This document shows positions 7,657 through 53,063 of a DNA stretch of 64,000 nucleotides, one piece after another; the stretch's first letter is position 1, and the number at the start of each line of letters is the position of its first letter. The position numbers were made by a program, and so were the translations under genes. The stretch lies in NCBI RefSeq assembly GCF_000027125.1, contig NC_017626.1. One strand, 5' to 3'. The notes under the pieces were generated by a model. That model made no database searches. It had not been told where the DNA came from and saw nothing but the letters and a program-made list of their open reading frames with translations. The stretch comes from Escherichia coli 042. GTDB taxonomy: Bacteria > Pseudomonadota > Gammaproteobacteria > Enterobacterales > Enterobacteriaceae.

Positions 7657-7669
7657 TTATTCTTGCAGA

Positions 7670-7706
7670 AAGCAGGGTAGCGATAACGCTACCCTGCTTT
7701 ACTTTT
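7670..7706. terminator. Probable bidirectional terminator between dtpB and rsmJ
   Basis: Hairpin aagcagggtagcgataacgctaccctgctt followed by tactttt; lies between two convergent genes. Confidence 0.55.
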
Positions 7707-12982: not shown

Positions 12983-13013
12983 AAGGGCAAAGAGTGGTGT
13001 GCTCTTTGCCCTT
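12983..13013 (+). terminator. Hairpin after gor (candidate terminator)
   Basis: Inverted repeat aagggcaaagag / ctctttgccctt directly after the gor stop; no strong T-run. Confidence 0.45.
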
Positions 13014-13384: not shown

Positions 13385-13470
13385 GCGTTAGATGATGGCA
13401 TTCTCACTCCAGCCAGAGCCACCAACTCAGGGCTGAAGAGTAAAAAAACCGACGCAAAGTCGGTTTTTTT
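13385..13470 (+). ncRNA. agrA: agrA-like small RNA (approximate ends)
   Basis: First full copy of the repeat ctctcactccagccagagccaccaactcagggctg ending in the terminator aaaaaaaccgacgcaaagtcggttttttt; the 5' end is a guess. Confidence 0.45.
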
Positions 13471-13616
13471 ACATCCGGATTCGGACAAGGCTTAATATGA
13501 CGATGACCCAGTGAAAGTATATAAATCGTCACTGCGATATATACCGAAGTGCTCCCTCCGCCAGCTGAAGAAACCGCTAATTCTTGCAATGTTAGCCACT
13601 GGCTAATAGTATTGAA

Positions 13617-13701
13617 CCGTTAGATAAGAGCTCTCTCACTCCAGCCAGAGCCACCAACTCAGGGCTGGAAAGTAAAAAACCGACGCAAAGTCGGTTTTTT
13701 T
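13617..13701 (+). ncRNA. agrB: agrB-like antisense small RNA, antitoxin for dinQ (approximate ends)
   Basis: Second copy of the same repeat and terminator (13674-13701); complementary to the partial repeat at 13190-13250 that lies inside the dinQ transcript. Confidence 0.45.
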
Positions 13702-22310: not shown

Positions 22311-22462
22311 CACCACCGAAAGATGCAGATGCTTTCTCAGCATCTGCATCATGCATTACATCAAATTAATACACAGCCAGCTAACTATTATTATAAGCCC
22401 TGTCCTGTTAATTACCTTTGGCAAACTGATTATAAAGTTAATGTCCGCACCAGGAGTCGGTT

Positions 22463-33797: not shown

Positions 33798-34370
33798 ATG
33801 TTATATATAGATAAGGCAACAATTTTGAAGTTTGATCTGGAGATGCTGAAAAAGCATCGCAGAGCAATCCAGTTTATTGCCGTGTTGCTGTTTATCGTCG
33901 GGTTGCTGTGTATCAGTTTCCCGTTCGTCTCTGGCGATATTTTAAGCACGGTAGTGGGTGCATTATTAATATGCTCGGGCGTTGCGCTTATTGTTGGATT
34001 ATTCAGCAACCGCAGTCATAATTTCTGGCCGGTATTATCCGGTTTCCTCGTCGCAGTCGCCTATTTATTGATCGGCTATTTCTTCATCCGCGCACCGGAG
34101 CTGGGCATTTTTGCCATTGCGGCATTTATTGCCGGTTTGTTCTGTGTTGCAGGGGTTATTCGCCTGATGAGTTGGTATCGTCAGCGTTCAATGAAAGGCA
34201 GCTGGCTACAGCTCGTTATTGGTGTGCTGGATATCGTCATTGCCTGGATATTCCTTGGTGCAACGCCGATGGTGTCTGTAACTTTGGTTTCCACACTGGT
34301 GGGTATTGAACTGATATTTAGCGCCGCCAGCCTGTTCAGCTTCGCCAGTTTGTTCGTTAAGCAGCAATAA
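33798..34370 (+). CDS. hdeD: Acid-resistance membrane protein HdeD (190 aa)
   Basis: Six-TM small membrane protein, divergent from hdeAB. Confidence 0.85.
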   Translation: MLYIDKATILKFDLEMLKKHRRAIQFIAVLLFIVGLLCISFPFVSGDILSTVVGALLICSGVALIVGLFSNRSHNFWPVLSGFLVAVAYLLIGYFFIRAPELGIFAIAAFIAGLFCVAGVIRLMSWYRQRSMKGSWLQLVIGVLDIVIAWIFLGATPMVSVTLVSTLVGIELIFSAASLFSFASLFVKQQ

Positions 34371-35166
34371 TTATCCCAGTTGTCACCCGGATCATAGTCA
34401 CTTGATGTGACTATGATCCGATTAATACTCTCTCCGCTACACAGCGTTGTAGATCAATTGCGCACTATCATTGAAATAATTACCTGCTGATGATTATTTC
34501 AACCTACTGAATTTCATCTGATTTTTTCATTCCATGGCAAATTAGCCATTTCAAACATTATCATGGCTGATATTTTCCGTAGTCAGGTTTAATGTTTTAA
34601 AAGTGCTGTGGGAAAGTGAACAAAGAGTTCCGTAAGCGTTGATGCTATGGGCGGTTAAATAAGTAATCCGGGTTCATTTTTTGCAACAGGCGTTGATTAC
34701 ATTGCATAAATATCCGTGTCTCCAGACGCTATATAAAAACCTGAAGACATGAATGAGTTATTTACTCAGGTAATTTCAATGCGTTAAAAGAAAGCTGGCA
34801 ATCCAATTGCCAGCTTAAGTCGAAACAAGGAGACTCGATATTTAAATCGGATTACATTTTAACTTTAGTAATATTCTTCAGAGATCACAAACTGGTTATT
34901 GATAACTTATTCTTGGGCAGTAATCCGCAAACGTTAACTTTTTGTTTACTATTTACAAACTGTTAACAACCAGGAATCTTACTTAGGATCAATATATGGA
35001 GTGCGTGATGGATAAATCTGAAGTATTGATTAGTGTTAATAAACGTATTAGTTCACGAAGGGCAAAGTTCTTATAGGCGTTTACTATATTGAACAACGAT
35101 TCGGACAAGGATGTAAATAATGAAAAGGATGACATGTGCGAAACGATAACGGCTAAGGAGCAAGTT

Positions 35167-35694
35167 ATGATTTTTCTCATGACGAAAGATTCTTTTCTTT
35201 TACAGGGCTTTTGGCAGTTGAAAGATAATCACGAAATGATAAAAATCAATTCCCTGTCAGAGATCAAAAAAGTAGGCAATAAACCCTTCAAGGTTATCAT
35301 TGATACCTATCACAATCATATCCTTGATGAAGAAGCGATTAAATTTCTGGAGAAATTAGATGCCGAGAGAATTATTGTTTTGGCACCTTATCACATCAGT
35401 AAACTAAAAGCTAAAGCGCCTATTTATTTTGTCAGCCGCAAAGAAAGTATCAAAAATCTTCTTGAGATTACTTATGGTAAACACTTGCCCCATAAGAATT
35501 CACAATTATGTTTTTCACATAATCAGTTCAAAATTATGCAACTGATTCTGAAAAATAAAAATGAAAGCAATATCACGTCGACGCTCAATATTTCGCAACA
35601 AACATTAAAGATTCAGAAATTCAACATTATGTACAAGCTGAAACTAAGACGTATGAGCGACATCGTCACCCTGGGTATCACATCTTATTTTTAG
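35167..35694 (+). CDS. gadE: LuxR-family acid-resistance activator GadE (175 aa)
   Basis: Sequence MIFLMTKDSFLLQGFWQL... with C-terminal LuxR HTH; preceded by the ~800 bp regulatory region typical of gadE. Confidence 0.85.
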   Translation: MIFLMTKDSFLLQGFWQLKDNHEMIKINSLSEIKKVGNKPFKVIIDTYHNHILDEEAIKFLEKLDAERIIVLAPYHISKLKAKAPIYFVSRKESIKNLLEITYGKHLPHKNSQLCFSHNQFKIMQLILKNKNESNITSTLNISQQTLKIQKFNIMYKLKLRRMSDIVTLGITSYF

Positions 35695-36032
35695 TCAGGA
35701 CATAAGCAACTGAAATTGATGGCTGGCATGACGAGGGATGCAGATGCTGATTTCATTACCCCCGGTGATTACTAAAGGAGAGGCGAAAACGACTTTATTC
35801 CCCTGGTATGTGTATCCACCAGTAGAACCCTTCGTTGCCCGAATGCTGGCAGGAACTGTTGGCAGAACGGCAACATTTTTTTTGTCGTTGACCTCACCAT
35901 GTCGATCACTATGCCTGTATCCCACCTTACTGGCTGACAACCCCACTATGCCGCTGGTCTGTAAATCCCTCATATCTCTCCTCGCGCGCAATTTAAAGAA
36001 CCGTTATTTCTCAAGAATTTTCAGGGACTAAA

Positions 36033-37190
36033 ATGAACAGAAGAAGAAAGCTGTTAATACCGTTGTTATTCTGCGGCGCGATGCTCACCGCCTGCGATGA
36101 CAAATCGGCGGAAAACGCCGCCGCCATGACGCCTGAGGTCGGTGTCGTCACGCTCTCCCCCGGTTCGGTCAATGTGTTGAGCGAATTACCCGGTAGAACC
36201 GTTCCTTATGAAGTTGCCGAGATACGTCCCCAGGTGGGCGGTATTATCATTAAACGCAACTTTATCGAAGGCGATAAAGTGAACCAGGGCGATTCGCTGT
36301 ATCAGATTGATCCTGCACCTTTACAGGCCGAGCTGAACTCCGCCAAAGGCACGCTGGCGAAAGCGCTCTCTACCGCCAGCAATGCCCGCATCACCTTTAA
36401 CCGCCAGGCATCGTTGCTGAAGACCAACTACGTTAGCCGTCAGGATTACGACACCGCGCGCACCCAGTTGAATGAAGCAGAAGCCAATGTCACCGTCGCC
36501 AAAGCGGCTGTTGAACAGGCGACTATCAACCTGCAATACGCAAATGTCACCTCGCCGATTACGGGCGTCAGCGGGAAATCGTCGGTGACCGTCGGCGCAC
36601 TCGTTACCGCTAATCAGGCAGATTCGCTGGTTACCGTACAACGTCTGGACCCGATTTATGTCGATCTCACGCAGTCGGTGCAGGATTTCTTGCGTATGAA
36701 AGAAGAGGTCGCCAGTGGGCAAATCAAACAGGTTCAGGGCAGTACGCCAGTACAGCTCAATCTGGAAAATGGTAAACGTTACAGCCAGACCGGCACGCTG
36801 AAATTCTCCGACCCGACGGTGGATGAAACCACGGGCTCCGTGACGTTACGGGCGATTTTCCCCAACCCAAATGGTGACTTGCTGCCTGGCATGTATGTCA
36901 CGGCATTAGTGGATGAAGGTAGCCGCCAGAATGTATTACTGGTGCCGCAGGAAGGTGTCACCCACAACGCCCAGGGTAAAGCAACGGCGCTCATTCTGGA
37001 TAAAGACGATGTTGTGCAGCTACGCGAAATTGAAGCCAGCAAAGCCATCGGCGACCAGTGGGTCGTCACCTCTGGCTTACAGGCTGGCGATCGGGTGATT
37101 GTTTCCGGTTTGCAACGCATTCGTCCGGGTATCAAAGCACGAGCAATTTCCTCCAGCCAGGAAAACGCCAGCACCGAATCGAAACAATAA
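36033..37190 (+). CDS. mdtE: RND efflux membrane fusion lipoprotein MdtE (385 aa)
   Basis: Lipobox MLTAC; HlyD/AcrA-like coiled-coil and barrel domains. Confidence 0.9.
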   Translation: MNRRRKLLIPLLFCGAMLTACDDKSAENAAAMTPEVGVVTLSPGSVNVLSELPGRTVPYEVAEIRPQVGGIIIKRNFIEGDKVNQGDSLYQIDPAPLQAELNSAKGTLAKALSTASNARITFNRQASLLKTNYVSRQDYDTARTQLNEAEANVTVAKAAVEQATINLQYANVTSPITGVSGKSSVTVGALVTANQADSLVTVQRLDPIYVDLTQSVQDFLRMKEEVASGQIKQVQGSTPVQLNLENGKRYSQTGTLKFSDPTVDETTGSVTLRAIFPNPNGDLLPGMYVTALVDEGSRQNVLLVPQEGVTHNAQGKATALILDKDDVVQLREIEASKAIGDQWVVTSGLQAGDRVIVSGLQRIRPGIKARAISSSQENASTESKQ

Positions 37191-52991: not shown

Positions 52992-53063
52992 ATGAACAAA
53001 GCACACTTTGCCAACACTCTAAATCTGTTTAATTGCCGGATGTCAGACATCCGGCAATTATCA

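Follow-up and report, generated by a model that had tools for sequence, protein, structure and literature searches.

An inverted repeat upstream of gadE in Escherichia coli 042 is almost certainly the Rho-independent terminator of the antisense small RNA ArrS

The window analyzed here, a stretch of 64,000 nucleotides (64 kb) from Escherichia coli 042 (contig NC_017626.1), includes a part of the acid fitness island in which the gene order is hdeD, arrS (on the minus strand), gadE, and gadF. The gadE coding sequence occupies positions 35167 to 35694 on the plus strand, with the ATG at 35167 to 35169, and its translation is 100% identical to GadE of E. coli K-12 MG1655. At the hdeD end of the 796-bp spacer between hdeD and gadE, 18 nt past the hdeD stop codon, a plus-strand terminator-like hairpin with perfect 14-nt arms is found at 34388 to 34420; it has no clear U-tract, and a mapped RNA 3′ end (MG1655 position 3657621) lies just after it. 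The curated MG1655 record places arrS (b4704, “small regulatory RNA ArrS”) on the minus strand between hdeD and gadE, at NC_000913.3 3657985..3658054, and the 70 nt of the window that run leftward from 34855 to 34786 are identical to this ncRNA at 70/70 nt. The arrS gene, encoding a 70-nt antisense small RNA, was accordingly placed at 34786 to 34855 on the minus strand, with its 5′ end at 34855 and its 3′ end at 34786. Downstream of gadE, a plus-strand match to the Rfam family ES205 at 35812 to 35883 (105 bits; E value, 8e−19) corresponds to the GadF small RNA annotated in MG1655, which has a terminator hairpin of its own.

Within the hdeD-gadE spacer, the repeat finder detected an inverted repeat at 34792 to 34816 of the form AAGCTGGCAAT-CCA-ATTGCCAGCTT, with arms that are 100% complementary. 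An earlier note, made from the sequence of this DNA, had described a perfect palindrome with 10-bp arms about 350 bp upstream of gadE. The perfect repeat stands at these positions, and the distance is acceptable, the repeat spanning −375 to −351 relative to the gadE ATG; the arms, however, are 11 nt long rather than 10, with G-C at 5 of the 11 pairs, and enclose a 3-nt loop rather than a single central nucleotide. The repeat is not due to chance: when perfect hairpin-type inverted repeats (arms of at least 11 nt, loops of 0 to 8 nt) were counted in the window and in 30 dinucleotide-preserving shuffles of the 64 kb, 8 distinct repeats were observed, versus a shuffle mean of 0.13 and a maximum of 1. 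The same control turned up further perfect repeats, with arms of 12 to 15 nt, at 7669 to 7700, 12983 to 13013, 22322 to 22350, and 53030 to 53060. Two copies of another perfect terminator-like hairpin (AAAAAACCGACGCAAAGTCGGTTTTTT) are located about 230 bp apart, at 13440 to 13472 and 13674 to 13700; a Term-seq row containing this hairpin sequence is labeled agrB, and the two copies are probably the terminators of the agrA and agrB small RNAs.

The inverted repeat upstream of gadE lies entirely inside arrS. Read from its 5′ end, the ArrS RNA is GUAAUCCGAUUUAAAUAUCGAGUCUCCUUGUUUCGACUU-AAGCUGGCAAU-UGG-AUUGCCAGCUU-UCUUUU, where the last U is the end of the RNA. Three parts can be distinguished on the minus strand: a 5′ body (nt 1 to 39; 34817 to 34855) that includes the seed for pairing with cfa mRNA; a stem-loop (nt 40 to 64; 34792 to 34816) with arms at 34806 to 34816 and 34792 to 34802 and a UGG loop at 34803 to 34805, recovered by the repeat finder, the terminator scan, and folding alike; and the U-tract UCUUUU (34786 to 34791), directly 3′ of the stem. 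In the predicted fold of the complete 70-nt RNA (−20.2 kcal/mol; z, −3.84), this hairpin dominates and is accompanied by two weak 5′ hairpins. The assignment of the 5′ end to 34855 rests on the MG1655 annotation and on its consistency with the seed: nt 7 counted from 34855 is a C (C7, at 34849, within GUAAUCC), in agreement with the published C7G seed mutant. Reading the sequence upstream of this end reveals a putative −10 element of the arrS promoter, C-TAAAGT, at 34862 to 34868 on the minus strand (−13 to −7 from the annotated 5′ end). A C at −13 is a recognized feature of sigma-S promoters, and the element is consistent with the reported sigma-S-driven induction of ArrS. Induction by acid and in stationary phase is reportedly mediated by sigma-S and GadE (PMC6755755).

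The strand on which the hairpin is followed by a U-tract is that of ArrS. The hairpin folds with −15.5 kcal/mol on the minus strand and −16.0 kcal/mol on the plus strand, with z values of about −3.4 to −3.9 against shuffles (−3.4 for the minus strand). On the minus strand, TCTTTT, that is, UCUUUU in RNA with 5/6 U, directly follows the stem, and the terminator scan called the site on this strand only (11 pairs, including 5 G-C; loop of 3 nt; tail, TCTTTTAACG).

Published E. coli Term-seq data (PMC7815308, supplementary file 1; tabs M63, LB OD 2.0, and LB OD 0.4) locate the end of the transcript. A minus-strand 3′ end with 982,952 reads in M63 maps to MG1655 position 3657985, equivalent to window position 34786, and another with 171,112 reads in LB at an OD of 2.0 maps to the adjacent position 3657984, equivalent to 34785; both rows are classed as “primary” for arrS. 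Each row of the table prints a 61-nt string, and the row for sgrS, used as a control, showed that the 3′ end is position 51 of the string, so that 3657985 is the last U of UCUUUU. Neither 3657985 nor 3657984 is listed in the LB OD 0.4 tab, and this distribution over the three conditions fits the reported stress induction. The four supplementary files of PMC7815308, including a table of Rho termination regions, were searched, and arrS and these coordinates occur in file 1 only. Mapping of transcript 3′ ends, which the earlier note had named as a way to check the palindrome, thus yields a dominant end at the minus-strand U-tract, at 34786/34785.

A stable stem-loop, a U-rich tract 3′ of the stem, and an RNA 3′ end at the end of the U-tract, which are among the features of an intrinsic terminator, all occur here, although the U-tract is short and interrupted (UCUUUU) and a loop of 3 nt is tight by the standards of canonical terminators. 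The palindrome therefore almost certainly serves arrS as its Rho-independent terminator; arrS is a cis-antisense small RNA gene of 70 nt, situated between hdeD and gadE in the acid fitness island. Underlying this reading are the sequence identity of arrS, the geometry of the hairpin and U-tract, the mapped 3′ end, and the conservation described below. Among the possibilities raised in the earlier note was that of a terminator of an antisense transcript, and the hairpin with UCUUUU indeed constitutes the 3′ end of the annotated ArrS, where the dominant Term-seq end is found; the earlier reading as a whole is partly supported, because this option alone was right, and ArrS itself went unrecognized in the note. 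Neither ArrS nor its terminator is new: both are annotated in K-12 and have been studied experimentally, including by mutation of this very loop. The hairpin was named the ArrS Rho-independent (intrinsic) terminator in 2024 (PMC11979758), in work which also found that mutation of the terminator loop strongly impairs fepA repression while ArrS accumulates normally and that the effect of the loop on fepA depends on Hfq and RNase E.

Taken together with the published work, these data suggest the following course of events. RNA polymerase would start at 34855, at the arrS promoter, and transcribe leftward for 70 nt; the 11-bp hairpin (ArrS nt 40 to 64) would form in the nascent RNA and, combined with the weak rU:dA hybrid of UCUUUU, would cause release at 34786. 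The hairpin-driven release step at this position is apparent from both the geometry and the Term-seq end. The hairpin and its U-tail would then make up a 3′ module that is expected, from RIL-seq and general knowledge of terminators, to stabilize the small RNA and bind Hfq; in RIL-seq, ArrS was classed as an Hfq-bound trans-acting small RNA. The body of ArrS would pair in cis with the gadE T3 leader and in trans, through the 5′ seed, with cfa, and the terminator loop would, according to the literature, act separately in trans on fepA. Activation of cfa by ArrS through its 5′ seed, with C7G as the seed mutant, has been described (PMC6755755), as has an RNase III cleavage site detected in ArrS (PMC6212723).

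Folded as plus-strand RNA, the hairpin is no less stable (−16.0 kcal/mol), and a weak plus-strand RNA 3′ end maps 4 nt past it, at 34820 (MG1655 3658019; 1,432 reads in M63, classed as antisense to arrS). Both observations would suit a role of the hairpin in the termination or attenuation of plus-strand transcripts, whether these come from hdeD or from the gadE promoter P3, and either as a leader attenuator or as a bidirectional terminator. Such a function is nevertheless improbable in the extreme. The sequence 3′ of the stem on this strand, AAGUCGAAAC (in a longer stretch, AAGTCGAAAC), contains no U-tract, and the scan made no terminator call there; the end at 34820 is about 700-fold weaker than that of ArrS (1,432 versus 982,952 reads); hdeD transcription ends at its own hairpin at 34388 to 34420, with a mapped 3′ end; the T3 transcript must read through the palindrome for gadE to be expressed; and a common T>C allele, considered below, weakens the stem on the plus strand only. 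Bidirectional termination in particular was rejected, the U-tract being confined to the minus strand and the reads being divided 1,432 (plus) to 982,952 (minus). The suggestion in the earlier note that the palindrome might terminate an upstream transcript thus finds no support, given the missing plus-strand U-tract, the ∼700-fold weaker end, and the separate hairpin of hdeD about 370 bp upstream. The plus-strand end at 34820 would delimit a gadE T3 leader fragment of about 220 nt (34601 to 34820) and could originate from a stalled exonuclease, from RNase III processing of an ArrS:T3 duplex, or from weak termination.

Comparison across E. coli genomes was informative with respect to both strands of the hairpin. 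The complete 796-bp hdeD-gadE spacer is 99.9% identical to that of strain 118UI, but at least 99% identity over its length is reached in only 154 of 5,413 E. coli genomes, the typical value being 95 to 99%. By comparison, a 99% threshold over the 100 nt centered on arrS is reached or exceeded in 5,397 of 5,411 genomes. The 40-nt segment containing the hairpin is identical in 4,098 of the 5,411 and has one mismatch in another 1,313. Re-querying with the variant sequence showed that exactly T>C at 34815 is present in 1,301 of the 5,411 genomes (∼24%), so that two hairpin alleles together account for 5,399. Position 34815 is inside the stem, in its second pair. On the ArrS strand, the substitution converts A-U to G·U, preserving 11/11 pairs at almost the same stability (−15.2 versus −15.5 kcal/mol); on the plus strand, conversely, it creates an A·C mismatch at the cost of the two outer pairs, leaving 9 pairs and −13.5 versus −16.0 kcal/mol. 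Counted over eight distinct homologs, 88/88 cells are paired on the minus strand and 84/88 on the plus strand. No pair in these eight homologs changed on both sides and 10 of the 11 pairs are invariant; because these stem pairs never vary, no claim of covariation is made. The T>C substitution may, moreover, be a single event. In one further genome, that of E. coli AH21H052 (NZ_CP196264.1), the sequence beyond the stem has been replaced through a rearrangement adjacent to the ArrS 3′ end, and the U-tract is shortened to UCUUGUG, a change that might impair ArrS termination.

The T>C allele also bears on the idea, likewise raised in the earlier note, that the palindrome is primarily the binding site of a dimeric regulator in the sensory integration region of gadE. 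A perfect dyad with 11-bp arms, positioned 28 to 52 bp upstream of the gadE T2 5′ end in a region reportedly controlled by more than 10 regulators (PMC3708157), has the appearance of an operator. However, because the T>C substitution changes one arm only, it breaks the DNA dyad while the RNA pairing on the ArrS strand is kept. The symmetry is not maintained across homologs: neither in E. albertii nor in the 1,301 of 5,411 E. coli genomes with the allele does the other arm carry a matching change. Judged from these alignments, the allele argues for a structure in the minus-strand RNA and against a symmetric DNA operator, as supporting evidence rather than proof. No footprint or binding site at −375 to −351 was found in the accessible gadE literature, and when tested anaerobically in lacZ fusions, the P2/P4 fragment by itself showed almost no activity (PMC3708157). 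A scan with a consensus for the GadE site (GAD box) remained at chance level, the best match having 7 mismatches, the same as in shuffles, so that no GadE site is proposed. Furthermore, the conservation of the palindrome is fully explained by its role as a terminator. The regulator-binding proposal is therefore unsupported, with no footprint in the accessible literature and a dyad broken by a common allele, and an operator as the primary function is very improbable.

Beyond E. coli, species-representative genomes were scanned with a degenerate pattern derived from the GadE helix-turn-helix, so that retrieval was independent of the hairpin. The scan retrieved E. albertii, E. whittamii, and two further Escherichia species, in all four of which the stem, the loop, and the U-tract are conserved; E. 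albertii carries the G·U allele, and two species have one extra U. In a comparison of E. albertii, E. whittamii, E. sp. E1V33, and E. coli E69, the stretch 34625 to 34785 is deleted or unalignable, with 70 to 80 nt immediately past the ArrS 3′ end either absent or impossible to align, whereas the ArrS unit and the P3 core (34550 to 34625) are 84 to 100% conserved. In the more divergent of the four retrieved species, the alignable sequence stops at the ArrS 3′ end. The combination of a conserved ArrS unit with a boundary at the terminator indicates that ArrS is a discrete conserved module edged by its terminator, and within the 796-bp gadE control region, few segments are as well conserved across Escherichia as the hairpin. 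Two matches to the locus were found in records of other bacteria. A contig titled Flavobacterium paronense (NZ_JAUFQN010000010.1) contains E. coli hdeD-arrS-gadE DNA that is ∼99% identical in the arrS region, with a gadE reading frame that looks degraded by indels, and a 466-bp contig titled Streptomyces sp. DH24 (NZ_JARVKW010000110.1) contains the 3′ part of gadE only, identical at 72/72 amino acids; both very probably reflect contamination of those assemblies.

When the published gadE 5′ ends are placed on the window, the palindrome falls within the leader of the T3 transcript. The T3 mRNA starts at −566, so that its 5′ untranslated region, at 34601 to 35166 on the plus strand, contains both the sequence complementary to ArrS and the plus-strand form of the hairpin (PMC3708157). 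The T2 (−324) and T4 (−317) 5′ ends, at 34843 and 34850 on the plus strand, are inside the segment complementary to ArrS; further 5′ ends were reported for T1 at −124 (window 35043) and at −21 (window 35146) (PMC3708157). The antisense relationship of arrS to the gadE T3 5′ untranslated region is thus evident from the gene order and the position of the T3 start, and complementarity of ArrS to the T3 leader has been described (PMC6755755, PMC6872547). According to PMC6872547, which discusses the Aiso papers, T3 is processed to the more stable T2 when ArrS is overexpressed, with direct evidence of cleavage lacking.

The location of the hairpin relative to T2 allows for an additional role, in which TTGCCA in the right arm (34807 to 34812) would be the −35 hexamer of the gadE promoter P2. 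This hexamer matches TTGACA at 5 of 6 positions, is invariant, and is separated by 17 bp from GAGACT, which is followed after 7 bp by the T2 start, a geometry that fits T2 at −324. Yet the −10 hexamer has only 3 of 6 matches, the promoter scan did not report the site, the P2/P4 fragment alone is almost inactive (PMC3708157), and T2 reportedly arises from T3 by processing and not as a primary transcript (PMC6872547). The hexamer is therefore quite unlikely to serve in this way; if it did, termination of a small RNA and initiation of an mRNA would share the same base pairs. A broader proposal, also unlikely, is that the terminator hairpin is multifunctional, that is, that it would act as an exonuclease barrier or processing determinant in the T3 leader, generating the fragment of about 220 nt and helping to define T2, provide the P2 −35 hexamer TTGCCA, and function in trans through its UGG loop. 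Among these components, sequence-specific control of fepA by the invariant UGG loop is published, whereas the exonuclease barrier and the shared −35 hexamer are roles that we infer.

The palindrome appeared unexplained because of an annotation gap, there being neither a PGAP feature at the site nor an ArrS family in Rfam 15. Searched against Rfam 15 in E-value mode, the region 34000 to 36500 yielded two matches, neither at the palindrome: ES205/GadF, which is downstream of gadE, and CRISPR-DR32 (E value, 0.69), which is attributable to chance. The PGAP-annotated RefSeq records with the arrS sequence, as listed from a collection of 5,411 E. coli genomes, carry no feature at the arrS site. With arrS absent from almost all RefSeq E. 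coli annotations and from Rfam, scans that use sequence alone will keep rediscovering this palindrome. As a discovery it matters little, the arrS terminator having already been described.

The closest known system is ArrS of E. coli K-12, an Hfq-associated, cis-antisense small RNA with the same 70/70 nt, the same position between hdeD and gadE, the same strand, the same terminator hairpin, and the same mapped 3′ end. The locus in the window is arrS itself, carried by a different strain of the species, and it shows no difference from K-12; the G·U allele of the second stem pair is found elsewhere, in ∼24% of E. coli genomes. Like the Rho-independent terminators of other Hfq-dependent small RNAs, such as SgrS, SdsR, and RseX, that of ArrS consists of a G+C-containing stem-loop followed by a run of U at the RNA 3′ end, and the terminator loops of SdsR, RseX, and ArrS all matter for the control of fepA (PMC11979758). 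The ArrS U-tract is short and interrupted (UCUUUU) in comparison with the 8 U of SgrS, and the ArrS loop has 3 nt only. GadY resembles ArrS in being a cis-antisense RNA of the acid fitness island directed at the transcript of an acid resistance regulator, in its link to RNase III-type processing, and in its classification by RIL-seq as an Hfq-bound trans-acting small RNA. GadY overlaps the 3′ untranslated region of gadX and the gadX-gadW spacer; ArrS, unlike GadY, overlaps a 5′ untranslated region.
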